From: an uncultured virus (IMG/VR IMGVR_UViG_2634166398_000002)
Taxonomy: Duplodnaviria > Heunggongvirae > Uroviricota > Caudoviricetes
Length of the DNA stretch: 64,000 nt
Strand: one strand, 5' to 3'
Virus record (IMG/VR): IMGVR_UViG_2634166398_000002
Program-made: the position numbers and the translations under genes
Notes under the pieces: generated by a model
The model's input: the letters and a program-made list of their open reading frames with translations, nothing else
What the model was told of the DNA's origin: nothing
The model's database searches: none
Shown: piece after piece, positions 3,434-58,700 of the stretch
How the letters are laid out: every line of letters starts with the position of its first letter
Numbering within the stretch: the stretch's first letter is position 1

Positions 3434-3482
3434 CCTTACACTCCTTTTTTCTTCTATATAAAAGACCGATTTTATCTAATGT

Positions 3483-3835
3483 TCACTTCACTTTATTTGA
3501 GTCAAAAGACAAGTGTACCCGTATCCAATAAAGCGCATCGCTTGCTTCATAAAAATCACCTTTAAAGAAATTCTTCACTACATTCTTTAATAAGAAGAAA
3601 ATATGTCTCCAGTCGTCATACTTAAAACTCATAATCCTTTTTATCATTGAAATAACCCTCCCCAAATCACTCCTGCTGCAATAGCAACAATGAATACTGA
3701 AACAAATTTCATAAGTACGAAGAATTTTATGTGCTTTGTTTCGTCCTCAGTTAGATCAAAATCTGATAAAGCAAAAAAACCAAACACAATTAATAATATC
3801 CAAGCTGTAACAATCAGGTCGTTTCCTCCAATCAT
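3483..3835 (-). CDS. Two small hypothetical ORFs (3483-3665; 3644-3835 membrane peptide)
   Basis: Overlapping, co-oriented small ORFs; the second is hydrophobic. Confidence 0.5.
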
Positions 3836-4245
3836 GTTTTATTGTGGCAGATATTAATATATTCCTGCAGGCTATTAACTGTTGAAATAATACACCCTCG
3901 AACCTCTTCTGGATCTACAAAGTCCATTTCATTTTGTAGAACAAATTCATCAAACTCAATCATGACAAGAAAGCGATCGTCATTGGGCAGCTTATTAAAG
4001 TTAATATTCCTTAATCTTGGAATGCCCTTTTCCTTAATCCATTCAAGGAAGGGATAATCAGCATCGTTCTTTGACGCTGCGATTTTTAAAAACTCATGAA
4101 TATCAGAAGAGTTTTCAATATTGAAATAAATGTGAAGACTCTCCTTCATGAGATCAAATAATCGCAATAGAGCTTCATCAATTTTATTGTCTGTTTTAGT
4201 CTTGAAGTTTATATCAAACCACTTTGAAGAGTTTTCATTATTCAT
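3832..4245 (-). CDS. Hypothetical phage protein
   Basis: 137-aa ORF with GGAGG RBS, coupled to neighbours. Confidence 0.6.
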
Positions 4246-4680
4246 TTAATCCCTCCAAGAATCATGTTTTTCAATAACAGTCAGTCCATCCCTATTTCTC
4301 TTAGTGTTTTGTTTTGCTAATTTTAATAGTGCATTGCTAGACTGTTTGTCATTAAAGACCTCTTCAAGGTTTAATAAACGCGTCCTTTGCTCCTTTGTCA
4401 TTGCTTGAGTATGTAAGTCAGTAACCTTCTTGTTGTTAGCTACTTTTCTAAATTCGTAGTATTTGGGTGGATTATAAGACTTAAACCATTTTTCAACTTT
4501 AAACGGTGACAATTGTCCAAAGCCAAACTTGATTAGTGCTACCTTTTTGCTTTCCGGATGATTCATTATTTGTTCATATATAGTCGAAGGTTCGGTTAGT
4601 TCACTAGACACTTTGAAACCCTCAATTAGAGAACCGTTATTAAAATGAATATTTACCTTTGTACCTGATCCATTATCCAT
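4246..4680 (-). CDS. Hypothetical phage protein
   Basis: 144-aa ORF in operon. Confidence 0.6.
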   Translation of the reverse strand: MDNGSGTKVNIHFNNGSLIEGFKVSSELTEPSTIYEQIMNHPESKKVALIKFGFGQLSPFKVEKWFKSYNPPKYYEFRKVANNKKVTDLHTQAMTKEQRTRLLNLEEVFNDKQSSNALLKLAKQNTKRNRDGLTVIEKHDSWRD

Positions 4681-4878
4681 GACTGGTTAACCCCCTTAAG
4701 CGTTCGACTTCAGCGACCAACCATTCTGCATAACTTATGTGAATTTTCATCACCTTGGTCGATCCAGCTTGCCGAGACATCACTTCAACGAATTGCTTAA
4801 TTTCTTCAAATTCAATTTCTTTCATTGAGATTTATCCCTTCTAAATGAAATCAACATTTTATGTAGTTTTAAAACTGA

Positions 4879-5499
4879 TTATCCGTTTTTAATTGGTGAA
4901 ATAAGCGTCAATAAGTTCGTGCTATTTTCTGGGGTAATGGTAAACGGTCGAAATGATCCGTAATGACGAAGCTTTATTTTATCTATCTTACATGTCTTAA
5001 AAAGGTTAAGGGCATCTATTATATACTGAGTTCCAAATACTAAATGAACATCTTCGTTTCCCTTAGAATACCCACTTTTAAACCTAGAAGACATAAGAGA
5101 ATTCTCAGCAAAGATCGTAGGAATATTGCCTCCATCCACATTCAACTCAACATATGCCTGTTTGTTTTTGTCTACTTGATTACATTTAAGTAATGCATTC
5201 ATCCCCGACAAAAGTTCTTTTGTTTCAAAAGTGATTTCCGCACTAGCATTGTTAATATCAGGGATTAAATGATCAATAGTAGGATAAGTTCCGTCAACCT
5301 GATCCCCTGTTTTGGGATCTAACACCATAGGATCTTTACCGGGAACCGCGCTTTTGGCAAAGTACAAACGATGCATATCTGTAACTATCAGATTTCCATC
5401 TTCAGAGTGATAAACTCCTTTCAATACTGGACGCCAATCTGGAACACTTTTCGTCACCTTTTCTGCATGCTTCATAAAAGTTGTGTATGAAATTTTCAT
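4879..5499 (-). CDS. Two-domain DNA polymerase III beta-clamp-like protein
   Basis: RPVLKGV, TDMHRL, YP and YIIDAL...RPF...LISPI match DnaN domains II-III; only 206 aa. Confidence 0.7.
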   Translation of the reverse strand: MKISYTTFMKHAEKVTKSVPDWRPVLKGVYHSEDGNLIVTDMHRLYFAKSAVPGKDPMVLDPKTGDQVDGTYPTIDHLIPDINNASAEITFETKELLSGMNALLKCNQVDKNKQAYVELNVDGGNIPTIFAENSLMSSRFKSGYSKGNEDVHLVFGTQYIIDALNLFKTCKIDKIKLRHYGSFRPFTITPENSTNLLTLISPIKNG

Positions 5500-5659
5500 T
5501 TTTATATTTCCTCCTCAATAAAATTAGAAAGGCTCTTTGCTACTCTAGTAAATATCTATCTCTTCAATATCATTTTCTTAGCATTTTGGACAATCAAAAT
5601 CAGTTTCATCACCAGTCGAAGCATAGTCACAATCATTGCATTGTCCATATGACACGGTT

Positions 5660-10308: not shown

Positions 10309-10674
10309 TTAAACCGATTCATACTGTAAGTGCTTGTTTTTCTTTTTGCTAATTTTATATTCGGCAATCTTCAGTGATTCAAGAGTCCATCCATTATTGT
10401 TTAAGCTGCCGAAAAGTGTGTTCAATAATTGGAGCTCTTGTTTTAAGCTTCTTCGCTTTCTCAATATCTTTTGCCCTTTTAACGAAAGGTGATATCCCTC
10501 TGAAGCATTAAATTTGTCCTCTTCTAACTTGTGATAAAATTCATTGAGCTCTTTATCAACTTTCCCTAGCTCTTTATAAAGGTTATCAATTTCATTTTGA
10601 AGTCGTTGTTTAGTCTCCTCAATTGCAACAAGAGGTTTGGAAATGGAAACAAGATAATCTTTTGCAGTTTTCAT
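10309..10674 (-). CDS. Hypothetical coiled-coil phage protein
   Basis: 121 aa, AGGAG RBS. Confidence 0.6.
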   Translation of the reverse strand: MKTAKDYLVSISKPLVAIEETKQRLQNEIDNLYKELGKVDKELNEFYHKLEEDKFNASEGYHLSLKGQKILRKRRSLKQELQLLNTLFGSLNNNGWTLESLKIAEYKISKKKNKHLQYESV

Positions 10675-10750
10675 AACGTCACTCCTATTTTTAAAATTTT
10701 ATTTTTATTCTAAAAGTATGTAAAAAAAGACAAGCTTTTAACTTGTCTTT

Positions 10751-12924: not shown

Positions 12925-13531
12925 TCAATCAAAAAGCTCGCCGGCTCTCTTCATGTCTTTAATTTCTTCACTTACACTTTCTTTGATTGTGTGAGGTAAC
13001 TGATCAATTCTCCGTTGGATTCTTTTCTGACCTGTATTTCTTATATGTAAAGTTAATTCTTTAAACCCTTCCATTGATTCGTCTGAAATTAAATCAAACT
13101 GATGTTGAATCTTAGCTAATAAGCTTATGTATTCTTCTTCATCTTCACTGAATAATTGGAGGCCTTGTTTAAAATTTTCTATTTCTTTTAGATGGGCTTG
13201 TATTTTCTCTATATGTTTATCCATTTTTCTTCACATACTCTTTGACAACATCGACAATTTCATGAGTATTGTGGAATACAGTTTGCCCTAATGAAGTGGC
13301 ATGAGAATAAAGAGGGTGATTATCAATATTTTTAATTTCTTCTTGTAAACAATCAAGAAGGATTCTTTCTGTTTTCACTGACACTTGTTCTAACAGCCAA
13401 CTGTTCCCGTTGTCCATAGAAAGCTGAATTCTTATTTCTGGCGGCAAGTTCTTAAATGCATTAATAAAGTCGTCAACCTTATATTGATCAGTCGGATTTA
13501 GCCTTGTTTTAATTGAAATTTTCATTTTCAA
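12925..13531 (-). CDS. Two hypothetical phage proteins (12925-13224; 13217-13531)
   Basis: Overlapping co-oriented ORFs. Confidence 0.55.
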
Positions 13532-13545
13532 ATCTCCTTTTTGTT

Positions 13546-13746
13546 TTAATTTGATTCTAATAAACTCAAAAAATTAACTGCTGCAACTCTATACCTTTGG
13601 TCTTCTTCATAAGCTGCAACTTGTTTCATATGCTCCAAAAACACATCTTCAAGCCCATGTTTTTGAATAAATCCTAAACACAGACCATTCCTGAAGAGCA
13701 TGTCGTCATATTTTGCTTGCAAATCTTTATAATTGTTATTGTTTAT
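13546..13746 (-). CDS. 66-aa hypothetical protein with ATA start
   Basis: AAGGAGG RBS 9 nt before ATA; open frame to TAA at 13546. Confidence 0.45.
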   Translation of the reverse strand: MNNNNYKDLQAKYDDMLFRNGLCLGFIQKHGLEDVFLEHMKQVAAYEEDQRYRVAAVNFLSLLESN

Positions 13747-13957
13747 CGTCTTTTTCCTCCTTATTGTTTAGATAAAAGTCTTCTTTTATTGAGATGTTCA
13801 TTCCATCAACATCCCTGTATCGACGCCTTTTTGTAAAACCTTTTCCTGAAATAACCTCTTTGTTTGGCATAATTATTGAGATTTTTGAGTATTTTAAGTT
13901 GTACCCTGGCTAAGACCCTCCACTGGACAAACATCATGATCTAAGCCAGGGCTTGTA

Positions 13958-14386
13958 TTACTTAGTTCCAGTCGATCCGTGCCCACCTCGATCATCGTTG
14001 CCTAGATGATCTACCTCAATCAATTCAACTGCAGGCATCTTCTCCATGATTCTGAACTGACAGATACGTTCCCCTTTTTTAATTTCTGTATCACGTAATG
14101 CATAAGCCGGAAAGAACCAGAAATCATTGTCTCCCTTGTAGGACTCATCAATAACGCCCATTGAGTTTGTTTCAATAATGCCGAAGTTTTTAAATGTGCT
14201 TGAACGTGGAACAACATGAGCCTCATATCCTTCTGGCAGCTCCATTGCTACTCCCAGCGGAATAAGTTTAAATTCATCTTTTTTGAGCTCTACATCTTCA
14301 GCCGCTCGGAGATCAATCCAATCCCCTTTCTCAATTTTGCTGATCCTTGTTTGTGTATCATCTAAATATTTGATTTTAATTTGCAT
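13958..14386 (-). CDS. yosS: Trimeric dUTPase
   Basis: All five motifs present: [29 protein letters not shown]. Confidence 0.95.
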
Positions 14387-14646
14387 TATGTTTTATTAAC
14401 TCCTTTAGTTTTTTATGAGAAACATCTATTATCCAAAAATTAAATAAGCAACCCAATCTGAGTACCGTTGAATAATCCAGTCTACACGTTTAATCTTGCA
14501 GAAGGTTATCCAATCAATTATCCATAAGGGTATTATAGTGATTAAAAAAACCAACAACAATATGTACTTCCACCACAAAAGCCTGTTAAAATTCCAACCG
14601 AATATGGTCAGCCCTCCCTTTTAATTACAATAAAATCACCCTTTTT

Positions 14647-14886
14647 TCATAATTCCTTTAACAACTCATCAAGTTCATTAGGCTTAAAACCAATACTCCG
14701 CTTTACTTCTTCTCCTTGCTCATTAAGCAAGAAAGTTACCGGTACACCCATGACACCAAATTGTGCGGCCGCTTCCGGATTCTGTGTTACATCAACTACC
14801 TCATATTCAACTCCTGCTTGTTCTAAGTAATTGGATACCATTTTGCAGGGATTGCAATTTGGTTGCTCTAATTTAATCAGTCTCAT
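14647..14886 (-). CDS. yosR: Thioredoxin/NrdH-like redoxin
   Basis: CNPC active site and GVP motif; follows nrdF. Confidence 0.88.
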
Positions 14887-20667: not shown

Positions 20668-20865
20668 TCCACAACTCCCTTTTCTTTATTTTTTGTTTTT
20701 ATTTTTGTCATGTCTAACGTCTAACTTATCCATATCATTTAGAATATGGTCAATAATAACATCGCTGAACTTACCGTAGACCTTATATCCAATTAATTTG
20801 CTTCTCAAATCTCTCCACTTTCTTGCTGCACTCATACTACTTCCCCTTCCTATGAAACTGTGATT

Positions 20866-21451: not shown

Positions 21452-21480
21452 ATAAGTTCACCTCCTTGTATTTTTATCCG

Positions 21481-21954: not shown

Positions 21955-21962
21955 TTCTCCTT

Positions 21963-22521: not shown

Positions 22522-22553
22522 GTCTAATCAACTCCTTAAAATCATCCTTTTAT

Positions 22554-22838
22554 TCAATAATCCTCTTGAGGGACTTTAATATAATTTGGAGCTTCTTCTA
22601 ACATCTCATCAAATATTGCGTCAATTACTTCCTGAAATACAGTTAAACCGGTTTCACTATTTGTTGAGGTTTCATTAATCTTTTCAGCAAACCCTTTAGC
22701 AAATTGTCTTTTGTATTTAACCTTAATTGATTCATCCCAGTTGTTTGGGTTATTGTTAAATGCCACTTCTAACAAATCGATCGGTAGAGTAATGACTACA
22801 TTTTTCCCTTTGACTTTCGCATAATCCATGCTTTCCAT
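22554..22838 (-). CDS. Hypothetical phage protein
   Basis: 94 aa, GAGGAG RBS; bracketed by palindromes at 22537 and 22852. Confidence 0.6.
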   Translation of the reverse strand: MESMDYAKVKGKNVVITLPIDLLEVAFNNNPNNWDESIKVKYKRQFAKGFAEKINETSTNSETGLTVFQEVIDAIFDEMLEEAPNYIKVPQEDY

Positions 22839-22868
22839 CTCCTCTTTTGTTTAAAATAAAACTTTTAT

Positions 22869-23255: not shown

Positions 23256-23258
23256 TCT

Positions 23259-25239
23259 TTAACTGGTTGCGTTCAGAGCCCCACTCCATTCATTGAATTC
23301 CCTAATATCAACTTCCTTTCTCTTTTTTGTTGTTTGTTCTGATTCGACATGACTAATAATTCGCTTAACTTTATCAACTAGCGTCAATCGTTTTAAGGGA
23401 TAAGGAACATGTGATAAAGGCATTCCATTGCCTGCAGCCAGTGTGCATTTTGTAACAAGATCCTTAACCTCCCATTCTAGAATGTCCCAACCTAGCCCCG
23501 TTCCTTCTTCAGCAATTAAATTAATTTCATATGTACCTCTAGCCGTTGTAATCTTCTTTGTTAATTCCATAACATCACCCTCCATGTATTTAAGTTCATG
23601 CGAGTTTCTCCTTGTTAGATAAACAGTGTGCTCACATACAGAACGATCAGTGCAAAAGCTGAATACAATAAAGACTTGCCTGCTTTCTTGAAGATGTGTT
23701 CGTTTTTTTCTTGATCTGACTGTTTTACACCTTTGACAAATATATTGAGTAAAACACCAATAACAAATGCATGAGGTAAAGTGACATGGACATTTTGAAT
23801 GTTGTATGTATCAATAAGCAAAGAATTTAACACATGATTCAATCCATAATAGACAACTAGTGACATAGTCAATGCTTCAACAAAAATGAGTAACCCAACT
23901 ACAATCAGAGAACCTGATCCAATAAAGAAACCGTTCCAAATATCTTTTGTATTCTTATTCAATAAATATCTCTCCTTTGGTCTTTTTTAGTTAGCCTTTT
24001 CCACCAGGAAGTTTTACTCACTTCATTTTGTTCTTCAACTCGATGATTCTCTTGTCTGACATGTTTCTGCCATTCCTCTTCAAATTCCGCTTGCTCTTTA
24101 ATTGCTCTTTCAAGACTTTCTTTGTCTTCAATTGTCATAATGATCTTATCAGTCTGATATGTCCATTCATTTTTTGTGTTGCGCTGCCTGTCTGTTATGA
24201 CTACGTATTCGTTAAACCCTGGGATATACACTTTCCCTCCGACTTCAATTGGGTCTAAATCAATAATTCCTTCGAAGAAGGCTTTGAACTCAGTTTTTTC
24301 CTTTTCAGTAATACCGCAAAGAATATCCAGCCCCCAACTTTTCTTAATTACCTTCCCTTCAAATGTTGCTTTATGCCGTCCCACTTATCCACCTCCTTAT
24401 ATGTAACTTCCTAATGTGTAATCTGAGATAATTCCCTCTTCAATTAAGTAAGACATAATTTCTTGGACTTTATCATGTATGATATGTGGAAATTCAAGTT
24501 TTTCTCTTGTATAAGCATTCATGTAGTACTGATAATCATATGGTTGCAAACTTCTTTCATTTAGAACATCAATTTCACCTTTTAGACTGTTTTTATGTAT
24601 TGTTAAATTAAAAGTAATGTTAGGGTGAATTGATTTTATGAAGTACCACTTTGATTTCACGTGATCTGTAAAACCGATGCCTCTCATTTGTTTCTCTTCA
24701 AGTATGTGAAACCTCATTTTTCTCCCTCATTGATGATTTTCTTTACGGCTTTTAAAAGCATGTTTAGTGATTTCTTGTCACCCATTTCATCCCGATTGAC
24801 CTCAATAAAGTGAACTGCTGACATTAATTTATCCTGCATTTCAGTTGCTCCTCTCGATAAAAATTGAATTTTATTTATAATTAATTGTTTTAAAAATCAC
24901 TTACAACCCAGGCTTAAAATTTTCACGTCCTAGTGGAATTGATTCCAAGAGTGTTTTGCTCCCGTCTTCATTCCACTTATAAAGATAAACACCATAATTC
25001 AACCCATTTTTGAAATATCTTTTGCTTGCATATTCATATAGCTTTTTCTTTGCTTTTTCCTCTTTTTCAAATTGCATTGAGTAATGCCCACTATATGCTG
25101 AGACATTTGCTACATAAGGTTTTTGCATATTATTAATTTTAGTAATATTAGACTCAACATCTTTCAGTTTCTCTTCTAAAACCTTTTTCTCTTTCTCTAG
25201 CTCTTCTTTTTTCTCTTTTAAAGAATGTGTGTTGGCCAT
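23259..25239 (-). CDS. Run of hypothetical phage ORFs (23259-23585, 23615-23962 membrane, 23959-24384, 24397-24717, 24901-25239)
   Basis: Co-oriented ORFs with RBSs; no recognised motifs. Confidence 0.55.
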
Positions 25240-25726: not shown

Positions 25727-25771
25727 CTCTTCACCTCGATTCTCGATAAAAGGAATATTTTATTTTTATTC

Positions 25772-26714: not shown

Positions 26715-26768
26715 AGGATCGACTCACCTCTTGTATTTTATTTTTACTCTTTAAAAGACAAATTTTAT

Positions 26769-27707
26769 TTAAATTGCCGCTTCTGTTTGTACTCCCTTTG
26801 ACGTTGAAAAATCAGCGTAGCTTAAAATATGAGCTATTACATCAACTGTCCATCCGTCCCCAAGCATGTTGTATCTATGACTGTCTGCAACACCTTTTGT
26901 ATAACCTTCAGGTACCGTTTGCAGTCTCTCGTATTCCAGAGGAGTAAGCTTTCTAACTCTATCATTATGTATAACTTTCTTTTGCTTATGACCACCTCTA
27001 CATGCTGTTAAGGTTGGAGCTTTAAAATGAGGACTGTATACCCTTTGTAAAATATCATAGTTGTATAAATCAAGCCTTGCCGCTATTCGCTTATGCAACC
27101 CATAAAAATCATAATTAAGATTGTAATAATATTTTTCATCAACGTTTTCCTCAAGAATATCTGCTAAGACCTGGTGCCTTTGATTGGGTTGTTTAACGTT
27201 TGGAATGTTAGTCCAGTAATATCTTTTTCTTTCCTGTGCAGAAAGTAGTCCACTGTCTATCATTATTGGTTCAACGCCTAAATTCTTAGTAATCGTTTCT
27301 TTATCCTTCTCTTTCATGCTCTCAACATTTTCATATAAAAAATACTTGGGCTTAACTGTTTTTAACGCCCTCACATACTCAAAGAACAATTTTGATTTAT
27401 CTCCAGCCAATCCTGTAAAATGCTCTTCACGATCAGCTACAGTTATAGTGAGGTTCTGACATGGACTTCCGCCTAGCAAAAGATCAATTTTATTTAATCT
27501 TTTTAATTTACGTGCATCTAATTCTAAAATATCACCCAGTTGAACTGTGGATGGATAGTTCCTTTGTGTTACTGCTATACTCGATTTTTCGATTTCACTG
27601 GCATAATATACATAATCAGTAATGCCAACTTTATTTAGGGCAATTTGGCCGCAGCTCATTCCGTCAAATAAACTTAATACTCTCACTAAATCACTCCATA
27701 TATTCAA
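26769..27707 (-). CDS. DNA (cytosine-5) methyltransferase
   Basis: SLFDG (motif I), GGSPCQ (IV), ENV (VI), Q.RKRYY (VIII), RKLTPLEYERLQ (IX), GDGW (X). Confidence 0.9.
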   Translation of the reverse strand: MNIWSDLVRVLSLFDGMSCGQIALNKVGITDYVYYASEIEKSSIAVTQRNYPSTVQLGDILELDARKLKRLNKIDLLLGGSPCQNLTITVADREEHFTGLAGDKSKLFFEYVRALKTVKPKYFLYENVESMKEKDKETITKNLGVEPIMIDSGLLSAQERKRYYWTNIPNVKQPNQRHQVLADILEENVDEKYYYNLNYDFYGLHKRIAARLDLYNYDILQRVYSPHFKAPTLTACRGGHKQKKVIHNDRVRKLTPLEYERLQTVPEGYTKGVADSHRYNMLGDGWTVDVIAHILSYADFSTSKGVQTEAAI

Positions 27708-27733
27708 TTTTTATTCTAAATAAAATTGATCTT

Positions 27734-28003
27734 TTATGTAGATTGTACAAAATACCCAATACAACCTGGCTTTTCAGGTTTTAATTCGCCCCAAACATTT
27801 TTGTTCTTGTCTATAATTTGAAGCTTATATTTATTGCCTGTTCTCTTCTCGACTAACTCTAATGCATACTCATCAATACATTTTTGAACTTCATATTCAT
27901 TGAAAGTCCAAAATGTCGAGTCTTCTAATAACCGATGTAATTGCAATGACATTTTTCTACGCAACTCTAATATTTGATCTCTAAATTTTATTTTGAGCCC
28001 CAT
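27734..28003 (-). CDS. Hypothetical phage protein
   Basis: 89-aa ORF. Confidence 0.5.
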   Translation of the reverse strand: MGLKIKFRDQILELRRKMSLQLHRLLEDSTFWTFNEYEVQKCIDEYALELVEKRTGNKYKLQIIDKNKNVWGELKPEKPGCIGYFVQST

Positions 28004-29384: not shown

Positions 29385-30092
29385 CTAACTAATAATCGAG
29401 ATTGTCCCACTTTGTTTACCAAAATTAATTGCGTCACGCTCGGTTGCTACGAGCAAGTCCACTTTATTTCCAACTATTGCGCCTCCAGTGTCAATTGCAA
29501 TTGCTTTAAATGTATTTCCACCAATTCTTACTTCAACAATTGAATTCAAAGGAATAACACTTGGATCGGTTGCAATAACACGATACCCTTTGTAATAGAT
29601 TGATTGAGTAACATCAACACCTGTTCTTGTGGTTCCTGTGCATCCTTCTTGGCAGTGGGCAATATAAGCACTCAACTTAACCTGGAAAGTTTTCTTTGCG
29701 ACCAGTGCCTTTCTTTCTTTTTCTTGTTTACATATTTTATTTTTACCCTTAAAAACATTATGCTTTGCCATCTCACCTCCTTTCACGTGCCTTTTCTTAC
29801 TTTGCTTAGGTTTAATGAGTTTTGCTGAGATAATCTTCTCTGTATGCCTTTTTAATTGTTGTTCTTTGTTCGTTTGAGCTTTTTTAAATAGCCGTAAGAC
29901 AATATTCTCACTTGATCGGATACTAATCTGTCTAGGCTTCTTATAAAATGATTCTTTTATTAAGTCTTCATTTCCCTCTGTTTTATGTAAATGTTGCTCA
30001 TAACTTATGTAAGAAAAAGTGGCTAACGGAATTAAAATCATCATACCATAAACAGATCTGGAAATGTGTGTTTTTATTTTATTTTTATTCAT
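29385..30092 (-). CDS. yorM: Membrane-anchored 3D-domain (MltA-like) protein
   Basis: IATDPSVIPLNS...AIDTGGAIVGNKVDL; N-terminal TM segment. Confidence 0.8.
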   Translation of the reverse strand: MNKNKIKTHISRSVYGMMILIPLATFSYISYEQHLHKTEGNEDLIKESFYKKPRQISIRSSENIVLRLFKKAQTNKEQQLKRHTEKIISAKLIKPKQSKKRHVKGGEMAKHNVFKGKNKICKQEKERKALVAKKTFQVKLSAYIAHCQEGCTGTTRTGVDVTQSIYYKGYRVIATDPSVIPLNSIVEVRIGGNTFKAIAIDTGGAIVGNKVDLLVATERDAINFGKQSGTISIIS

Positions 30093-40960: not shown

Positions 40961-40982
40961 GTAAATAATCAACCTCTTTCTT

Positions 40983-48638: not shown

Positions 48639-49052
48639 TTAACTTGACCATTCAGCAAAGCTGTAGGGGTAATCAACACTTTCAATGAAACCGATCTCCT
48701 TCGCCTTCTGACGGATTTTCATACAACCTTCATAGCTGTAAGCCCATATTTCTTTATAATCCCTCAGCTCACCGTATTTCCCTGTTATGATGAATTTTCT
48801 GAAGCTGTTGACCAGCTGCCACATGTTGCCCCCATGCGAAAAGCCGTTTGGACTCCCGTATCCCATTTCATACGGGTAAACGTCAGCGCCCGTGTAATCA
48901 TCAACGAAGAACAGTTTTTTCTTAAATCTGAAATACGCTATGCGATCCTTTGACTTGCGGTAGAATGTACGATGATCAATGCTTGAGATAAGCTTGATCA
49001 AATCGTTTATGTCGTTCATTCGTTTCAATTGCTCTGCTGATGCCATCTGCAC
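48639..49052 (-). CDS. Hypothetical phage protein
   Basis: 137 aa containing GFSHGG. Confidence 0.6.
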   Translation of the reverse strand: MQMASAEQLKRMNDINDLIKLISSIDHRTFYRKSKDRIAYFRFKKKLFFVDDYTGADVYPYEMGYGSPNGFSHGGNMWQLVNSFRKFIITGKYGELRDYKEIWAYSYEGCMKIRQKAKEIGFIESVDYPYSFAEWSS

Positions 49053-49207
49053 CCTTCCCTTCTATAAAATAACTATTTTATTTTGATTCCATAATAATCA
49101 CCAAATATCGTAGCCCACAAAACAATTTAAAATATTCGTCATTTTCTCTTCTTCTATTAATCCGTATTCAGCAAGTCTGTTTAAATAACCTTCCCGTTCG
49201 TTCTTGG

Positions 49208-50147: not shown

Positions 50148-50300
50148 ATGAAAATTCTAATGGATCTTTTCATAACTTGGATTTTTGATAAAGTCATGGA
50201 TTATTCACTAGGAGCTGTAATTTGGTTTGTATTTAAGGCCAAGTCAAAGCAGAATGAGTATCCCGATGACTTTGAGAAAAAGCGTCGATTCAGACTTTAA
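50148..50300 (+). CDS. 50-aa membrane peptide with basic tail
   Basis: AGGAGGTG RBS; MKILMDLFITWIFDKVMDYSLGAVIWFVFKAKSK...KKRRFRL. Confidence 0.6.
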   Translation: MKILMDLFITWIFDKVMDYSLGAVIWFVFKAKSKQNEYPDDFEKKRRFRL

Positions 50301-50800
50301 ATTGACTGACTCGTATTCTGATCGCTATCGCCGAGCGCATCAACTTCCGTAAACACCGCCTGTTCTATCGGCTTGATTACCGCTTGTGCGATACGATCGC
50401 CTTTTCGGATGATGTACGAACCTTTCGCAAAATGATCCCAAGCTCTGAGGTAATCGAGAGCACTGACGATTTTATCTCTTATATCGAAAAGAAAGTCCTT
50501 TTCAATATCTGTATAACGATTTATATTGTCGACGATTACTCCGGCCTCTCCTCGATATCCCGCGTCAACAGTGCCGAGCTGCACACGTAATTTAGTCTTC
50601 AGCGTAATGACGGAGCGCGGTCGGATCTGCATTTCGTAACCTTCCGGAATCTCGAACGCCAAGCCCGTCGGCACACACGCCGTCTCGCCCGGCTCGATAA
50701 TTACGTCCTCTGCCGCGACCAGATCAAAGCCGGCGTCCGTTGCGTGCGCATAAGCTGGAATCTGTGCGTCCGGTGATAACCGTTTGATATTTACGTTCAT
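50297..50800 (-). CDS. Second dUTPase-like protein lacking motif 5 (possibly truncated)
   Basis: AGFDL, PRSV, GTVDAGYRGE and GDRIAQ present; ends DSDQNTSQSI. Confidence 0.8.
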   Translation of the reverse strand: MNVNIKRLSPDAQIPAYAHATDAGFDLVAAEDVIIEPGETACVPTGLAFEIPEGYEMQIRPRSVITLKTKLRVQLGTVDAGYRGEAGVIVDNINRYTDIEKDFLFDIRDKIVSALDYLRAWDHFAKGSYIIRKGDRIAQAVIKPIEQAVFTEVDALGDSDQNTSQSI

Positions 50801-50881
50801 TTCGTTTCCTCCAAATAACTGATTAAAATCACGATTTTAATTTAACTTTAATGTGTATCATCTTGAGAAAATCTCCTTTAA

Positions 50882-52677: not shown

Positions 52678-52786
52678 CGGTTCTCACCCTTTCTTTAAAA
52701 CAGTCTTTTTATTGTGACTGTATAGCTTCAATTAAAAATCTCTTTCCTTCTTGTTTACAGTTGAAACAGCCAAGTCAAGATTAACA

Positions 52787-54703: not shown

Positions 54704-56902
54704 TCATCTTGTTTCCTGGGCCACAGTTTCTTTTTCAAAATCGTTTCTCAATTTGATAATGGAGGTTGATTTTAAATACCCTCTGTCCTTTGTCTTAGCC
54801 CATGCGAAAAATCTATTGTGTAAAGGAGTATAAAGGCTTCCTGTGTTAACCATATGCTCATGTTTGTTGCTGATCTTATGCTTTAATCCCCTCATTTGTT
54901 TCCAAAAGTTATAGTAAGGGAGCTTAAGTTTTGTCATGAAGCCGGCAGCATCTTCAATTACATAACCCTCTTCCTCAATTGAAAAATCTTGTGACACGTC
55001 CAGATACCATCTATAGAAATCTGTCCAGTTACTAAACTCTGCAACTTGTTTTTTACACTCAATGTTTAGATGCTCGGCTACAGCTTTCAATTCCCAATAA
55101 GGAAGTTTTGTATACGCAACCTGCCTTTTAACAATATCTAAAAGCACCAGTTTATCTTTGTCGTATTCAATGATATGCGGGTCTTTTTCTGGAAGTATTA
55201 CTTCAAAAACGAATGAAACATTGTTAAGCATCAGGTAAGTTTTGATAAAAGACACTTGATTTTCATTAAAAGATTTGAAAAACAGTTCTTCGACCCATTT
55301 CGCATGTTCATTTGATATTTGTGACGTAAAGGATTTAGAAGTGAATACCAACTGATCTGACAAAGAGTCATACCCTACAGTTCCTAAATATCCATTTGCC
55401 TTATCGAAGACTGTTACTGGAAATTTCATCGTATCTACGAGATGATGCATTCTTGTTTCAGATCGTTCTCCAATGTTGAAAAATTTATCATAGCTTCTGC
55501 TTACAATTTCATTGCTCTCAGTGTTAATAAACAAACCTCTTGCCTTAATATTTGTTTCATCCCACTTTTTCTTTCTAAATGCTTGCTTTGTAAAATTAAA
55601 TGATGAGATATTGTTTGGCATTTTATTCTCTTGCACATATTCATGACCACGTAAGTGGGAAATCAATTCATCAATTGTTCCAACAGTTGCGCTGTTACTC
55701 GGTACTTCACTTGAAATTTGTTTAAAGACTTTATTCTTCACTTCATGCGTTTCAATTCCGTTCTCAGACAGTGTAACGACTCTAAGATGTCCTCCTCTTT
55801 CCACTTGCCCTTCCAGGTTATATGATCTATCTGCTGCTACCACAGGCAGACGGTACATGTTTCTATGTCCATGAATCTGTACAACATTTTGACCTGCAGT
55901 ATTATTTGCAAATTCATAATCAATATCGTCTGAATAATCTCCAACTCCATTGATGAATTGTGTTGTTGCAGTCATCAAAAGATTTTCTGGTACGGTTGAA
56001 ACTCCGCCATGGGTTACAATGTATGTAGTGTTTTTATATGTAAAGTAAGCTAACTGATGAAACTTTCTGGCCAGCTGTCTAATATCTTTTTTATCAATGT
56101 TGGATTGTTCGATTTCTGGCTTAGTTTTGTTGTTAAATGTGTTGCTAGGTGTTTCTTCATCATTCCCATACATATTGATATATCTATCATGATTTCCTTC
56201 GAGAATAATCACATTTTTATAATCTTTAATTTTGATCATGAATTCTAACAGCTGTGCATTTTCAATACCTCTGTCGATAAGATCTCCTACAAAAATGTAT
56301 AGTTCATTTTCATTCAAATCACCGTTTAAGTACTCTTGAAGCACAGTATTACACCCATGAACATCTCCGAAAATATGGATCTTTTTATAATCGTCAAAAC
56401 ATCTCGGCTTATAAGTCATCGTGTTTTCAAACTCATCTGGTTTTAGAACAGTTACCCAAGATGGCACTTTTTCTGTTGTCATTCTTTCATAAATATTTAG
56501 AATATTGCTTTCAGGAACATGTTTATGTTCAGCCCTCATTTTATTTCTTTTTAAGATTCTCCGAACATCCACATCAGAAAAATCAACTACATATACACGG
56601 TATCTATATTTTTGAGCTAGTGGCTTATATCTTGAAATCATGCTTTGCTTTGAATGAGTTGCATCGATAATTGTGAATTCACCGCGATCCATCCTATCTT
56701 CAAGCAACTTTAGTAATAAATCCCACACCTTGTTGTCGTGTTTTGGAGAGATTTCATATTTTCCACTTTTGTTTAATACAGGTGACTGAAACAGCAGTCT
56801 AATGTTGTCTGCAGAAAGAGTGTATTGCTCAAGTCCATTTTCCTTAATCCAAGTTGATTTCCCCACTCCTGGGCAGCCTCTTAATAACACTAATGTTCTC
56901 AA
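54704..56902 (-). CDS. Trifunctional RNA-repair enzyme: polynucleotide kinase, metallophosphoesterase and Rnl1-like RNA ligase
   Basis: GCPGVGKS/DAT kinase; GDVHG, GDLIDRG, GNHD, HGH phosphatase; ARGL, KFFN, KANG, EGYVI, KLK ligase motifs. Confidence 0.85.
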   Translation of the reverse strand: MRTLVLLRGCPGVGKSTWIKENGLEQYTLSADNIRLLFQSPVLNKSGKYEISPKHDNKVWDLLLKLLEDRMDRGEFTIIDATHSKQSMISRYKPLAQKYRYRVYVVDFSDVDVRRILKRNKMRAEHKHVPESNILNIYERMTTEKVPSWVTVLKPDEFENTMTYKPRCFDDYKKIHIFGDVHGCNTVLQEYLNGDLNENELYIFVGDLIDRGIENAQLLEFMIKIKDYKNVIILEGNHDRYINMYGNDEETPSNTFNNKTKPEIEQSNIDKKDIRQLARKFHQLAYFTYKNTTYIVTHGGVSTVPENLLMTATTQFINGVGDYSDDIDYEFANNTAGQNVVQIHGHRNMYRLPVVAADRSYNLEGQVERGGHLRVVTLSENGIETHEVKNKVFKQISSEVPSNSATVGTIDELISHLRGHEYVQENKMPNNISSFNFTKQAFRKKKWDETNIKARGLFINTESNEIVSRSYDKFFNIGERSETRMHHLVDTMKFPVTVFDKANGYLGTVGYDSLSDQLVFTSKSFTSQISNEHAKWVEELFFKSFNENQVSFIKTYLMLNNVSFVFEVILPEKDPHIIEYDKDKLVLLDIVKRQVAYTKLPYWELKAVAEHLNIECKKQVAEFSNWTDFYRWYLDVSQDFSIEEEGYVIEDAAGFMTKLKLPYYNFWKQMRGLKHKISNKHEHMVNTGSLYTPLHNRFFAWAKTKDRGYLKSTSIIKLRNDFEKETVAQETR

Positions 56903-56950
56903 ATTCTATCAACCTTTCTGATTTTTATTTGTTTAAAATGCATCTTTTAA

Positions 56951-57379
56951 TCACTTCATTGCGGCATAGTTCTCAAAGAATTCTTCAACTGATCTTAGGT
57001 ATCGGTATTTATTTGGATCTTCTGGATTTCTAAATCTTTTCGATAACACTAATGACCAATTAAGCATCAATGGAGAAAACCTCGCCCATTTACTAACGCT
57101 TAACTGAAGACCTTTCCATTCTCTCCCCGCTAATTCCGCTAACTCTAGAATTTGATCTTCTTTTAAATTTACTTCTTCATCAAACATTACTTGAATTTCC
57201 TCGTATGGTTTATGTCCAAAACAACAGTGGCGTGTTTTCAATCCAATCTTGAAATTCAAAATATCAATTAAATTGATCATTTGTGTATCAAGCTCATCAT
57301 AGGGTATACCATTTGCAATGAATTTTTCTCTTTGATTTGATTTCACATTATCCTCCAGCAGATTTAAATTCTCACTCAC
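56951..57379 (-). CDS. Conserved-looking phage protein
   Basis: LD...LN...KTRHCCFGH segment. Confidence 0.6.
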
Positions 57380-57534
57380 TTCACCCCCTCCTTAAAAAAT
57401 GTCTTCTCACACTCTTCACATAAAGGCGGGTGAATAGGAAGCCCCTTACAGCCGCACATATAGCCATCACAACACATAGTCATATCTACATCCGTCATCT
57501 TTCCGCATTTGATACAAGGAACTATCTCACTCAT
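57376..57534 (-). CDS. 52-aa, eight-cysteine metal-binding protein
   Basis: [12 protein letters not shown]...CCDGYMCGC...CEEC; coupled by overlaps at both ends; not in the ORF track. Confidence 0.6.
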
Positions 57535-57734
57535 TCCGCACCCGCCTCAGTCCAAAACAATGTCTCATTCGTTATTTTTTCCACTTTATAATTTTTGAGG
57601 TAGTTATTATTTACGTATTCCTCTGCGTATTCCAATGCGGTTTTATCATCATTGGCGCCGAAACTGAAATGCTTCCAACCGAACTTAACTTCGTACCAAA
57701 GCTTATATTCAATACGTTTTACATCAGCATTCAT
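57531..57734 (-). CDS. Hypothetical phage protein
   Basis: 67 aa, ATGA-coupled. Confidence 0.55.
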   Translation of the reverse strand: MNADVKRIEYKLWYEVKFGWKHFSFGANDDKTALEYAEEYVNNNYLKNYKVEKITNETLFWTEAGAE

Positions 57735-58165
57735 TCCGCGCCCTCCAATAACTCATGATTTTGGTAAACGTCGCCGATGACTTTATTTGTCGCCGTCTCA
57801 GAAAACAACGGTCGGCACTCTTCTTTTTTCTCATTGACGATGCACCATGAGCCGTCAATCATTTTCACTTCGCCTATGAATGGCTGCGGCTCATACAAAC
57901 CGCCAGGTGCTGTTTCCTCCTGTTCAACGATGTCACCCGCATAAATTCGCTTCAGTCTCGAGTGTGTTTGAAACTGATCAGTTCCATTCATGAGAACGGA
58001 TTTTCCGTCTCCGCTGTGTGCGATCACACCATAACCTCCTAACCATACAGACCATCCGAAAACTTTTCCTTCAATTGAACCCAATTCACCGATGGAAAGG
58101 CATATGCCTTCATCACCGCAATAACACATCTGCTCGCCGTCCCAAACTCTATATGCTGTGTTCAC
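57731..58165 (-). CDS. YopX-family protein
   Basis: YRVWD...IYAGDIV...KVIGDVYQN. Confidence 0.75.
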   Translation of the reverse strand: MNTAYRVWDGEQMCYCGDEGICLSIGELGSIEGKVFGWSVWLGGYGVIAHSGDGKSVLMNGTDQFQTHSRLKRIYAGDIVEQEETAPGGLYEPQPFIGEVKMIDGSWCIVNEKKEECRPLFSETATNKVIGDVYQNHELLEGAE

Positions 58166-58700
58166 AATTCCCTCGCCTCCTTTGGGTTTACGTTACACAT
58201 TTCCTTCAACACATCAACAAACTCTTTTTCGCTCATGTTCAGCGGTGTGTACCACTTTATTACTTCATGAAACGGCTGGAGATAATTCACCAATGTATCT
58301 TCAGCATCTTCCCTGCCTTTTGTTGTGCCAGTAAAATTATTTAAATAGTCTTCACGCGTCATATTTATGTGCGTCGGACAGTCAACCACTGAACTAAATC
58401 GGCAGTACCGTCCATTCGGCTGCTTAGCGATTAATGCACCCATGTTATTCCCCCTTACCTGAATCTCTATAAAACTTACATTTTATTTTTACTCTTAATA
58501 CATTCATGCTGATTCACAACATCACGGAGTATGTATTGTATTTCCTCTAAATTGTCTTTAACAAAATCCAAGTCCCCAATTGCCATTCTGATTTCACCAT
58601 TATCTATGCTGCGTAAAGACCTTTCACATGATGCTAAGAGCTTTGCATATTTCCTTAAAACCATTGTTCTTATTTGATTATTAGTTGGTTCATTAATCAA
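58162..58700 (-). CDS. Two hypothetical ORFs (58162-58443; 58476-58700)
   Basis: ORFs with RBS. Confidence 0.55.

Follow-up and report, generated by a model that had tools for sequence, protein, structure and literature searches.

Junction dyads in the window

The window, by which we mean the whole 64-kb stretch of SPbeta-like prophage DNA analysed here, carries among other genes a C5 DNA methyltransferase, an RNA-repair gene and, towards its end, homologues of yopR, yopQ and yopP. It is punctuated by 15 exact copies of the palindrome TAAAA-N6-TTTTA (Table 1). The 13 positions listed in an earlier reading of the letters alone (hereafter the sequence-only reading) were all confirmed, while the copies at 10692 and 29944 had been overlooked. 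That reading had called for a comparison with other spacers and with shuffled DNA, and both bear it out. In 100 dinucleotide-preserving shuffles of the window, which served as the null model, exact copies averaged 0.58 (standard deviation 0.71, maximum 3) and none of the 100 reached 15; the estimate of about one chance copy per 64 kb had thus been right. Every other spacer from N0 to N20 gave 0 to 4 copies in the window. An unbiased scan of all 5-mer dyads with spacers of 0 to 12 returned TAAAA-N6-TTTTA as the sole enriched dyad of the window (15 versus 1.4 at other spacers), and six genomes together hold 150 exact copies at N6 versus 8-11 at N5, N7 and N9. The motif is real and strict at a spacer of six. 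No published description of it was found in the literature searched. All 10 one-mismatch copies listed in the sequence-only reading exist, but the window holds 25 of them and the shuffles about 17.8 copies with at most one mismatch, so that this class is barely above chance; in the six genomes its count at N6 (262) is background (230-304 at N5, N7 and N9). In the six genomes the half-site TGAAA occurs at N6 about twice as often as at N7, and 4 of the 10 listed copies have it.

The claim that the sites delimit gene units is supported by their placement, 14 of the 15 window dyads lying outside long ORFs on the gene (minus) strand. The dyad sits after a stop codon and ahead of the next ribosome-binding site: the upstream stop is at most 9 nt away or within the dyad at 8 of the 15 window copies, and a start codon follows 12-63 nt downstream at 12. 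The TAA of the left arm is the actual stop codon at 12 of the 34 SPbeta sites, and PBC2 dyads lie 2-5 nt from the Shine-Dalgarno sequence. Two-thirds of the 31-80-bp junctions have no dyad. The replication block had been described as free of copies, which is true for 30119-41363 but is contradicted by the dyad at 29944; their absence from yopR to yopP was confirmed over 60036-63524.

Table 1. Dyads, cassettes and yop genes of the window, with the occurrence of each dyad centre in compared genomes
Feature	Positions	Strand	Details	Centre elsewhere
Junction dyad	3459..3474	.	Gene-strand centre TCGGTC; upstream stop 8 nt off; next start 25 nt downstream	SPbeta 132747 and phi3T, both flanks unrelated
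Exact dyad	10692..10707	.	Centre ATAAAA; after terminator-like hairpin; 17 nt before start of ORF 10309-10674	Not found in other compared genomes
Junction dyad	13773..13788	.	Centre GAAGAC; SPbeta homology ends 13790	G002 and G001:C23
Junction dyad	22537..22552	.	Centre GGATGA; 1 nt past stop of ORF 22554-22838	SPbeta 118867, both flanks unrelated
Single-gene cassette ORF	22554..22838	-	Bracketed by dyads GTTTTA and GGATGA	
Junction dyad	22852..22867	.	Centre GTTTTA; 1 nt past stop of ORF 22869-23255; 13 nt before start of ORF 22554-22838	All 5 B. subtilis-group genomes; upstream flanks of 4 kinds, downstream flanks of 5
Junction dyad	24858..24873	.	Centre TTCAAT; exact copy	
Junction dyad	25747..25762	.	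Centre TATTCC	5 genomes; downstream flanks all different
Junction dyad	26752..26767	.	Centre TTTGTC; 1 nt past methyltransferase stop; SPbeta homology ends 26775	
C5 DNA methyltransferase cassette	26769..27707	-	Between dyads GATCAA and TTTGTC; Pfam DNA_methylase E 6.5e-36	
Junction dyad	27721..27736	.	Centre GATCAA; left-arm TAA serves as stop of ORF 27734-28003	
Exact dyad, intragenic	29944..29959	.	Centre GAATCA; within yorM-like ORF 29385-30092	Kept with both flanks in G002 and G001:C23
Junction dyad	49065..49080	.	Centre TAGTTA; 12 nt before start of ORF 48639-49052; SPbeta homology ends 49084	
Junction dyad	50824..50839	.	Centre TCGTGA; 23 nt before dUTPase-like gene 50297-50800; SPbeta homology starts 50823	
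Junction dyad	52696..52711	.	Centre AGACTG; SPbeta homology ends 52713	4 genomes, 4 different upstream flanks
RNA-repair gene (kinase-phosphatase-RNA ligase)	54704..56902	-	Pfam RNA_lig_T4_1, AAA_33, Metallophos; between dyads GATGCA and AGACTG	
Junction dyad	56934..56949	.	Centre GATGCA; 1 nt past stop of ORF 56951-57379; SPbeta homology starts 56932	5 genomes
Junction dyad	58470..58485	.	Centre TGTAAG; stop codon of ORF 58476-58700 inside centre	
yopR/mrpR/sroF homologue, recombinase-fold master repressor	60036..61019	-	Pfam MrpR_C_cat and MrpR_N_CB; binds a different element	
yopQ/sroE homologue (DndB/ParB-like), alternative candidate reader	61040..62389	-	Pfam DndB E 2.7e-16	
yopP/sroD, XerH-like tyrosine recombinase, candidate dyad reader	62466..63524	-	Pfam Phage_integrase 53.1 bits (cut-off 27.1)	

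Anatomy and distribution of the dyad

TAAAA-N6-TTTTA is the middle of a 28-bp dyad with an 11-6-11 layout. Position counts over 40 unique sites gave the consensus T-Y-W-R-R-A-TAAAA-K-N4-M-TTTTA-W-N-N-A-R-A, with no variation in the inner 5 bp of either arm and weak conservation further out. Inverted 11-bp arms around a free 6-bp centre support the tyrosine-recombinase-site layout suggested by the sequence-only reading. Mirror positions pair no oftener than under independence, and compensated double changes are not enriched at N6 (88 versus 65-88 at other spacers, six genomes). When the 15 window sites were folded in silico over 28 nt, the energies lay between 0 and -4.3 kcal/mol, with an absolute z below 2 in 13 and no fold at all in 2. 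The dyad is a site on double-stranded DNA, without a stable hairpin.

The same dyad ranked top in the unbiased scan of the window, SPbeta, a B. pseudomycoides prophage, Geobacillus virus E3 and PBC2. SPbeta has 34 copies and PBC2 has 23; in Perkons 17 copies compare with 2 of the control pattern, and none was found in SPO1 or SPP1. A Bacillus host genome is not enriched (105 versus 111 for the control), and 28 of its 105 copies are on the 142-kb contig bearing the prophage arm. The dyad is phage-specific and occurs at gene junctions throughout SPbeta-like phages.

Gene swaps with breakpoints at dyads

When related phages were compared, synteny was broken at dyad junctions in 109 of 126 genome comparisons, versus 125 of 252 at dyad-less junctions of matched gap size; for small genes only, the figures were 100 of 112 and 162 of 260. 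Breakage is common at dyad-less junctions too, in 50-62% of comparisons. There are 31 pairs of sites that resemble each other on one flank and are unrelated on the other; in these, homology reaches to the edge of the dyad and no further, whichever flank is shared, and 22 of the pairs have the same centre. The contigs of relatives are interrupted at 22552/22553, 22867, 26768 and 27737, and one relative lacks the gene 22869-23255, with the joint exactly at the dyad edge 22867. Unrelated cassettes are found between the same two centres. Between GTTTTA and GGATGA there are 299 bases in the window versus 381 unrelated ones in SPbeta (coverage 0.00). Between GATCAA and TTTGTC, SPbeta and phi3T have 1364 bases (coverage 0.07), and the relative G001:C23 has 294 (coverage 0.00). 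The GATGCA-AGACTG segment measures 4222 bases in the window versus 2310 in SPbeta, 1433 in phi3T and 1890 in G002 (coverage at most 0.08). These comparisons support what had been proposed from the window, namely that single accessory genes lie between two sites and that breakpoints of gain, loss and replacement fall at the sites. The dyads mark exact gene-swap points between related phages.

Between phi3Ts and SPbeta, 5 of 48 homology-block ends lie within 12 nt of a dyad, versus about 0.45 expected, an enrichment that nevertheless concerns a minority of the ends. No crossover in the laboratory phi3Ts x SPbeta hybrids required a dyad: all placeable crossovers lie in long shared blocks, and the only sharp non-homologous joint (Hyb3, ~54013) has none. 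The authors of the hybrid study likewise report homologous regions as the location of 15 of 16 recombination sites (bioRxiv 10.1101/2020.05.06.055103).

The centre as a position-specific address

Of the 15 window centres, 13 are found again in relatives, where they keep their order (0 order inversions) and orientation; often one or both of the neighbouring genes have been replaced, and homology ends at the dyad edge. Among 104 identical-centre pairs, both flanks are related in 18, one in 51 and neither in 35. Pairs that share a centre between unrelated flanks have the same orientation in 50 cases versus the opposite in 1, and no centre is duplicated within any of six genomes. The new finding here is that the 6-bp centre behaves as a position-specific address, kept at the same map position in relatives. 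The statement of the sequence-only reading that the core differs nearly every time thus holds between positions of one genome, but not at the same position across phages, where the core is conserved; this also speaks against any need for the Tn916-type tolerance of non-matching cores that it had invoked. Since centres are conserved by position across phages, exchange between matching sites is indicated. Plain homology-dependent recombination could also explain the retention of centres, 16 identical bases being favoured over 5+5.

YopP as candidate reader and a model of cassette exchange

The sequence-only reading had named YopP as a possible actor, and it is a reasonable candidate. The window protein has the complete catalytic set R, K, HxxR, H, Y. 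In a profile search of solved structures its nearest relative was XerH (5jjv, E 4.6e-9), while IntI4 scored E 0.0035. Eight SPbeta proteins are also present in E3, PBC2 and the B. pseudomycoides arm, and the only recombinase-fold proteins among them, candidates for site-specific DNA binding, are YopP and YopR. The dyad co-occurs with a YopP-like gene in 10 of the 11 dyad-tested lineages carrying one, a co-occurrence confounded by overall relatedness; KKP_3916 has such a gene yet no dyad enrichment (2 versus 1). Two observations count against reading by YopP. SPbeta YopP has HSFK where the window, phi3T and B. pseudomycoides have HSxR, Lys replacing the second catalytic Arg, and SPbeta carries its 34 dyads despite this; and YopP lineages are just 31-35% identical while the inner arms are identical. 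The yopP gene lies in the lysogeny operon beside a paralogue turned repressor, and a regulatory role would also fit.

We tentatively propose, as a reading that may well prove wrong, that cassettes are exchanged between cognate dyads, with the XerH-like YopP/SroD as candidate reader. A phage protein, most likely YopP/SroD, would bind each dyad as a pair. Two sites of the same address on co-resident related genomes, either a prophage and an incoming phage or two co-infecting phages, would then recombine. The sites of one genome, with their differing centres, would not match and would be inert to each other, so that gene order would be kept, and two neighbouring addresses would allow the gene between them to be swapped. 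If true, these phages would have a natural equivalent of recombinase-mediated cassette exchange with heterospecific sites. In lox/FRT cassette exchange, too, a cassette is flanked by two sites with common arms and different spacers, and only matching sites on two molecules react, but that is an engineered use of Cre or Flp. To our knowledge, no natural cassette-exchange system of such logic with dozens of addresses has been described.

Alternative explanations

It is possible, although doubtful, that the dyads are operators first. A dimeric phage regulator on the junction dyads would silence or insulate prophage transcription, and general recombination would use the dyad as a short homology patch, because it is the sole sequence common to unrelated neighbouring genes. 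The model would be the stoperators of cluster A mycobacteriophages (L5), asymmetric 13-mers that follow the direction of transcription and are binding sites of the prophage repressor. They resemble the dyads as dozens of short sites in short intergenic regions across the genome of a temperate phage, often touching stop or start codons; unlike them, the dyad is symmetric, and the known repressor of SPbeta-like phages binds another element. The regulator could be a non-catalytic YopP (like its paralogue MrpR), the DndB/ParB-like YopQ/SroE or another protein, and recombination could involve genes of the phage itself: the Sak4-like YorG, the RecJ-like YorK and the RecU-like YotM. Dimeric regulators typically bind sites with dyad symmetry and no covariation, and the sites lie in 5' leaders, in PBC2 next to the Shine-Dalgarno sequence. 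According to the sources, yopP, yopQ and mrpR are core genes expressed in lysogeny (PMC10516654), and SroE is a second repressor whose target is not known (bioRxiv 10.1101/2025.11.27.690993). The Lys of SPbeta YopP, the origin of the laboratory hybrids by homologous recombination and the precedent of the PeSLs of T4-type phages (PMC2839356) point the same way, and homology alone would favour same-address exchange, cognate sites offering 16 identical bases. However, operators usually come with many degenerate copies, and here the one-mismatch copies are at background. Nor does a regulator explain why the centre outlasts the replacement of both neighbours, as in 35 of 104 pairs. A search of PBC2, with its 23 dyads, returned no YopQ at E 1e-5, the ten MrpR ChAP-seq peaks reported lie at another element, SPBRE (PMC10516654), and the dyad-less two-thirds of 31-80-bp junctions indicate that junction silencing does not generally depend on the dyad.

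A less probable alternative dispenses with a dedicated binding protein. The dyad would be a linker in which either strand offers a stop codon and which gives the next ribosome-binding site an unstructured, A/T-rich leader, and selection for working junctions together with rare short-homology recombination would account for conservation and breakpoints. The use of the left-arm TAA as a real stop (12 of 34 SPbeta sites, and 27721) is consistent with this, as are the tolerated variant TGAAA, also a stop codon, and the ribosome-binding site that always follows. A linker, however, requires neither the exact spacer of 6 (15 versus 0-4) nor two-fold symmetry, it has no need of ten invariant positions kept from Geobacillus to B. 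subtilis, and two-thirds of comparable junctions function without the dyad.

The sequence-only reading had called the system integron-like, with circular single-gene cassettes captured and excised at sites that tolerate non-matching centres. Bracketed single genes, the relative joined exactly at a dyad edge in place of 22869-23255 and an encoded tyrosine recombinase would fit, but we consider this very unlikely: there is no attI/IntI platform beside an array, the sites being spread over about 130 kb and both genome arms; they measure 16-28 bp, with no long folded attC, no folded-strand signature and no covariation; centres that are never duplicated in six genomes and are conserved by position are the opposite of free capture; and the YopP profile is nearer to XerH than to IntI4. 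Hardly credible, finally, is an RNA element, a hairpin of the polycistronic mRNA for processing (the sequence-only reading's alternative) or for an RNA-binding protein: complementary arms and transcription of the site between genes would fit, but the predicted folds are weak, neither compensatory variation nor G-U tolerance was found, and the dyad is identical on both strands and occurs in both gene orientations as well as between divergent genes.

Relation to known systems

For cassette exchange by a XerH-like protein, a close parallel is the single-recombinase Xer system XerH-difH of Helicobacter pylori. The XerH site is reported to have arms of 11 and 10 bp, separated by a 6-bp central region that the protein hardly touches; XerH reads the inner 5 bp of both arms specifically and contacts the outer positions on the backbone (PMC5241119). 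This contact pattern equals the conservation pattern of the dyad, and XerH is also the nearest solved relative of YopP. In contrast, difH is described there as one chromosomal dimer-resolution site, whereas the dyads number 15-34 per phage, have their own centres and lie at gene junctions. The pdif/dif modules of Acinetobacter plasmids, where multiple Xer-type sites in accessory regions flank adaptive genes on both sides and the enclosed genes are interpreted as mobile modules, differ in that pdif resembles host dif and is thought to use host XerC/XerD (PMC6449649). The dyad is not enriched in the host chromosome and its candidate enzyme is phage-encoded, and position-specific conserved centres apparently do not figure in the available text on dif modules (PMC6449649).

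PeSLs are likewise short intergenic repeats between non-essential genes, where recombination inserts, deletes or replaces genes between related phages, but the source portrays them as a strong sigma-70 promoter plus terminator hairpin acting through homologous recombination (PMC2839356), whereas the dyads span 16-28 bp and vary in the centre. Over 13000-30500, promoter-like matches (46 versus 57 expected) and terminator-like ones (6 versus 8.6) were not in excess; one of the eight dyads there lies under a weak promoter-like match and none under a terminator-like one. SPBRE, the element of MrpR (YopR, SroF), also recurs between genes of these phages, and the protein that binds it has a tyrosine-recombinase fold (PMC10516654; bioRxiv 10.1101/2025.11.27.690993). 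As derived here, it has about 10 copies, is asymmetric and is promoter-associated. It is reported to be bound by a monomer (bioRxiv 10.1101/2025.11.27.690993) and differs between SPbeta and phi3T, whereas the dyad has two-fold symmetry, is three times as numerous and does not change from lineage to lineage. In SPbeta, three dyads are close to SPBRE copies, at aimR, yosX and yorE.

Abundance and distribution of the dyad

The dyad TAAAA-N6-TTTTA occurs in 15 exact copies in the 64-kb window, compared to a mean of 0.58 and a maximum of 3 in dinucleotide-preserving shuffles. All 13 exact positions listed in a sequence-only reading of this DNA were recovered, together with two that it had overlooked, at 10692 and 29944. 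The spacer comparison and shuffled controls that it had proposed came out in favour of the motif: the remaining spacers between 0 and 20 gave 0-4 copies each, and in a scan of all 5-mer dyads with spacers of 0-12 no other dyad of the window was enriched. Across six genomes, 150 exact copies were found at N6 versus 8-11 at other spacers, while one-mismatch copies numbered 262 at N6 versus 230-304 elsewhere. In junction gaps of 25-100 bp, the respective figures were 60 versus 0-2 for exact copies and 31 versus 9-49 for one-mismatch copies. The ten one-mismatch copies reported in the same reading do exist, but one-mismatch copies total 25 in the window, and shuffled sequence yields about 17.8 with at most one mismatch. 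Since exact copies are far above background and one-mismatch copies are near it, the motif is close to all-or-none; TGAAA is the sole variant showing some excess.

The dyad is abundant in several phages and proviruses. It is the top dyad of an unbiased scan in Geobacillus virus E3 and in the B. cereus phage PBC2, and the early arm accounts for 24 of the 28 copies on the B. pseudomycoides contig. In all dyad-bearing phages the site is placed behind a stop codon and ahead of a ribosome-binding site. By contrast, dyad copies in the whole B. pseudomycoides genome number 105, versus 111 of a control pattern, and the 142-kb prophage-arm contig accounts for 28 of these dyads. With high counts in phages and control-level counts in the host genome, the site is phage-specific and very widely conserved. 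A helicase-query search of genome contigs returned two loci. G001, a 9.1-Mb high-G+C assembly labelled Streptomyces, includes a 133-kb SPbeta-like contig (C23), whose helicase is 99% identical to that of the window. Relatives of G001 have almost no dyad copies, and C23 is most simply explained as contamination of that assembly.

Exact dyad counts in phages and prophage contigs
Genome	Dyads	Other spacers or control
SPbeta	34	other spacers 0-3
G002 provirus	23	
G001:C23	24	
phi3T (30-128 kb)	26	
phi3Ts	30	
B. pseudomycoides contig (helicase 41% identical)	28	other spacers 0-7
Geobacillus virus E3	30	
B. cereus phage PBC2	23	
Psychrobacillus phage Perkons	17	control 2
Alicyclobacillus phage KKP_3916	2	control 1
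SPO1	0	
SPP1	0	

Gene setting of the sites

The window, whose genes lie on the minus strand as judged by composition and ORFs, is the early arm of an SPbeta-like prophage; about one third of SPBc2 is matched, at ~80% identity. At its edge a host permease gene is followed by the last phage gene, which places the prophage end near 950-1100 and means that the integration site is not spsM. Fourteen of the 15 copies lie between genes. The upstream stop codon is at most 9 nt away or within the dyad in eight of the 15, and a start codon follows 12-63 nt downstream in 12. In five genomes, 210 same-strand junctions with 31-80-bp gaps carried 53 exact and 20 one-mismatch copies (about one third), and no exact dyad was present in 1536 control windows placed within genes. 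The dyad is a frequent but not an obligatory feature of junctions. As the sequence-only reading had observed, the yopP-yopR segment is free of sites in an exact-copy search.

The single intragenic copy lies in a yorM-like ORF, upstream of its 3D domain, and is possibly a domain-level joint or the result of a mis-set start codon. This dyad and both its flanks are conserved in G002 and C23, and the matching place in SPbeta (111029) has a dyad with another centre and differing N-terminal parts. A leader, TTTAGArTAAAAATAAAAT followed by a ribosome-binding site, recurs after dyads with different centres in SPbeta (113664/132747), phi3T and the window (27721, 26752); thus a repeated 5' leader travels with some cassettes.

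Features discussed in the text (window coordinates unless a genome is named; L001 and L002 are pieces of SPbeta, NC_001884; L023 is the B. pseudomycoides prophage arm)
Feature	Position	Details
Host permease gene	1-924	xanthine/uracil type; Pfam Xan_ur_permease, E 3e-85
Last phage gene	1118-1672	YotM-like (RecU/PrfA-type)
Gene missing in one relative	22869-23255	joint at 22867
Read pile, RNA run X24	25274-25325	2957 reads on ~50 bases, 90-99% likeness
yorM-like ORF	29385-30092	dyad at 29944-29959
RNA-repair gene	54704-56902	732-aa fusion: polynucleotide kinase (AAA_33), metallophosphatase, T4 Rnl1-type RNA ligase
Hyb2 switch block	Hyb2 104654-106011	bounded by GATCAA, TTTGTC
Hyb3 (W03) joint	Hyb3 ~54013	SPbeta ~64.5 kb to phi3Ts ~55.27 kb
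yopP of SPbeta	L002:33691-34767	H-x-x-K where second catalytic Arg expected
yomM of SPbeta	L001:40301-41302	H-x-x-K where second catalytic Arg expected
Zinc-ribbon ORF, SPbeta	73703-73882 (-), in L002	59 aa, CxxC...CxxC; unannotated in NC_001884
Zinc-ribbon ORF, B. pseudomycoides	L023 6657-6833 (-)	

Centres are kept by map position

The six-base centre of each site behaves as an address. Among the 150 sites of the six genomes there are 87 different centres; 35 of these are found in at least two genomes, and no centre is duplicated within a genome. Thirteen of the 15 window centres recur in SPbeta, phi3T, G002 or C23, all in the same orientation and with no order inversions. The sequence-only reading had regarded the variable cores as non-matching; this does not hold for cognate addresses, which carry matching cores. 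Flanks of ~100 nt were classified by gapped local alignment against a 98th-percentile null. Among 104 identical-centre pairs, 18 had two related flanks, 51 had one and 35 had none. Where flanks were unrelated, 50 pairs shared a centre in the same orientation and one in the opposite orientation, the latter serving as the chance control. Centres are thus kept by map position despite replaced flanks, a result predicted alike by a rule that partner sites must share their centre and by homology-driven exchange. Because the upstream stop codon is often in or beside the left arm, replacement of the upstream gene with retention of the centre needs a crossover inside the dyad.

Intervals between shared addresses hold different DNA in different genomes. 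The RNA-repair gene of the window, a one-protein RNA-repair kit, lies in an address interval that is occupied by yoqD-yoqI in SPbeta.

Intervals between shared addresses (lengths in bases)
Addresses	Window	Relatives
GATCAA to TTTGTC	953, 312-aa methyltransferase	SPbeta, phi3T 1364 (coverage 0.07); G001:C23 294 (coverage 0.00)
GTTTTA to GGATGA	299	SPbeta 381 (coverage 0.00)
GATGCA to AGACTG	4222, including RNA-repair gene	SPbeta 2310, phi3T 1433, G002 1890 (coverage <=0.08)

Breakpoints in natural relatives and laboratory hybrids

The earlier suggestion that related phages break at these sites was borne out in 31 site pairs with a similar flank (identity of 70% or more) and a dissimilar one (45% or less): homology ends at the dyad's outer edge, whichever of the two sides this is. 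The centres of these pairs were identical in 22, one base different in six and unrelated in three. Alignments between the window and SPbeta ended at a dyad edge in 6 of 60 cases. Across five genomes, synteny at dyad junctions was broken in 109 of 126 informative genome comparisons, versus 125 of 252 at motif-less junctions of the same gap size; these comparisons are mutually non-independent and have a high background of breakage. With small flanking genes only, the figures were 100 of 112 with and 162 of 260 without a dyad, a difference that every genome shows on its own. Breaks at 22552/22553, 22867, 26768 and 27737 are seen in independent contigs of relatives taken from public runs, and one relative lacks a gene at such a joint; these contigs come from RNA libraries and are uninformative on transcription. 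In one raw-read RNA run with the same species label, a pile of reads flanked on both sides by unrelated loose ends has the appearance of a strongly expressed RNA from another place with a short stretch in common with this part of the phage.

Three published phi3Ts-SPbeta hybrids were painted with parent-specific 25-mers. All parental switches but one fall inside long shared blocks, and 15 of 16 recombination sites are placed in homologous regions in the report on these hybrids (bioRxiv 10.1101/2020.05.06.055103); its one non-homologous joint, 'following yosA', is close to the SPbeta dyad at 116415. Two of the shared switch blocks are dyad-bounded, one in Hyb2 and another whose interval ends at GAATAC; this is the natural mosaic of the parents and not a laboratory event. 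The sole sharp non-homologous joint, in Hyb3, has no dyad and at most eight shared bases. No event demonstrating dyad-specific exchange was found among the three hybrids. Of the ends of phi3Ts/SPbeta homology blocks, 5 of 48 lie within 12 nt of a dyad, compared to ~0.45 expected, indicating that dyads are enriched at mosaic boundaries, yet account for a minority of them.

Anatomy and class of the element

In 40 unique sites from the window and SPbeta, the consensus in gene orientation is T-Y-W-R-R-A / TAAAA / K-N4-M / TTTTA / W-N-N-A-R-A, which gives a 28-bp layout of 11-6-11 in which positions -5..-3 / 20..22 and 1-5 / 12-16 are two-fold symmetric. Ten inner arm positions are invariant across all 150 copies, next to the many different centres. 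Watson-Crick pairing of mirror positions shows no excess over independence, compensated double arm changes are not enriched, and the 15 window sites taken as RNA fold with only 0 to -4.3 kcal/mol, 13 of them inside two standard deviations of shuffles. The sequence pattern points to two half-sites that would be read on duplex DNA, rather than to a folded strand. Xer/dif-class sites consist of two inverted binding arms of ~9-13 bp around a central overlap of 6-8 bp, and partner sites share the central region. The layout of arms and centre, the specific inner arm bases and the free centre of the dyad are as in such a tyrosine-recombinase core-type site. For the combination of a phage-specific duplex site of Xer type, all-or-none arms, position-conserved private centres and breakpoints at both of its edges, the best explanation is that cognate sites of related genomes recombine with each other.

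Several known classes of element were compared with the dyad. PeSLs combine a strong sigma-70 early promoter with a terminator stem-loop. The dyads resemble them in marking points of insertion, deletion and replacement between related phages, but are without the strong promoter and terminator stem-loop. A promoter-terminator unit was rejected, with promoter-like and terminator-like hits between 13000 and 30500 below shuffle means; the PeSL build is absent there, with one of eight dyads under a weak promoter-like hit and none under a terminator-like one. A sigma-A promoter in the dyad and its flanks was unsupported by eye and by scan. A YonO promoter was discarded, as YonO is without a homologue in the dyad-bearing E3 and PBC2, and SPbeta is dyad-free at the YonO start site upstream of yonK, a site whose mapping is approximate. 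The sites of pdif/dif modules resemble host dif and depend on host XerC/XerD; for the dyad, the B. pseudomycoides host genome has no enrichment outside the prophage contig. A literature search for the motif found no description, the only match being an unrelated archaeal regulator.

Candidate recombinase and rival readings

Only eight SPbeta proteins (YopP, YopR, YorJ, YorK, YorL, YorM, YorR and YosR) have homologues in E3 as well as in PBC2 and the B. pseudomycoides arm (tblastn, E <=1e-5). YopR (MrpR/SroF) is the master repressor and has a different, lineage-variable operator. For YopQ no PBC2 homologue was found at the same threshold, and YomM was rejected as the reader of the site since a search of 127 of the 133 kb of C23 did not find it. 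The HU-like YonN and the 59-aa zinc-ribbon ORF were considered too. Window YopP (SroD) matches Pfam Phage_integrase above cut-off, has SAM-like domains and a complete catalytic set (R, K, HxxR, H, Y); its R, K, HSLR and H align to XerH R213, K239, HMLR and GH, with Y beside the alignment end. With a three-lineage YopP profile searched against all solved structures, the best match was XerH (E 4.6e-9), then archaeal XerA, IntI4 and XerD. XerH covers 11 and 10 bp of the two arms of difH, which surround a 6-bp central region; it reads the inner 5 bp of each arm specifically and the outer part via the backbone, barely contacts the centre, and inner-arm mutations abolish its cleavage, as described in the structural report (PMC5241119). 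The conservation pattern of the dyad, with invariant inner arms and a free centre, equals this contact pattern. Against YopP, the protein of SPbeta itself has Lys at the second catalytic Arg (HSFK, where those of the window, phi3T and B. pseudomycoides have H-x-x-R), its lineages are mutually only 31-35% identical, and the gene sits in the lysogeny operon. We suggest only tentatively that YopP, which the sequence-only reading had also named, catalyses exchange at the dyads.

A somewhat less likely alternative is that the dyad is an operator or other binding site, merely used as a homology patch. Homology-driven exchange would equally retain the centres, and if the sites are operators, the missing target of the second SPbeta repression layer would be defined. 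The dyad as an operator of MrpR was rejected: MrpR ChAP-seq gave ten peaks with a 15-bp SPBRE motif (PMC10516654), compared to 34 dyads in SPbeta, and SPBRE, as reconstructed by us from the ten upstream sequences that this paper names, is a different, AATAATATGTATA-like, asymmetric promoter element. The phi3T SroF box also differs from the dyad and is described as monomer-bound (bioRxiv 10.1101/2025.11.27.690993). A protein-free linker, an integron-like system and an RNA element jointly take up what probability remains. The integron analogy drawn in the sequence-only reading fails on its defining features: there is no attC folding signature and no attI platform, and the YopP profile is farther from IntI4 than from XerH. 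Integron attC sites are imperfect palindromes of 57-141 bp recombined as folded single strands, unlike the dyad with its 16-28 bp, no covariation, no compensated variants and weak folds only; unlike an attI-intI platform with a growing array, the dyads are spread over both phage arms.

Phage mosaicism is usually ascribed to random illegitimate recombination followed by selection, or to homologous recombination at shared genes. A more far-reaching scheme, which we consider unlikely as it stands, is a natural many-address cassette exchange: YopP/SroD would act on dozens of sites with shared arms and private centres, and only the same addresses on two related genomes would recombine, so that phages could trade any gene or block between two addresses to the exact base pair, with their gene order safeguarded. 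If true, this would correspond in vivo to cassette exchange with heterospecific lox/FRT sites and would give modular phage evolution a mechanistic footing. For a model temperate phage family with hosts in Bacillus subtilis, the B. cereus group, Geobacillus and Psychrobacillus, the joints in any case carry a defined site under strict conservation, with a label per position that outlives both neighbour genes. The module-exchange mechanism is directly testable in B. subtilis with the existing phages SPbeta and phi3T, it provides a concrete hypothesis for the core gene YopP/SroD, and a naturally orthogonal set of recombination sites could result.

A small zinc-ribbon ORF adjoins a dyad and is encoded on the other strand from its neighbours; its identity is 88-98% among phages of the B. 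subtilis group and 65% for the B. pseudomycoides prophage.
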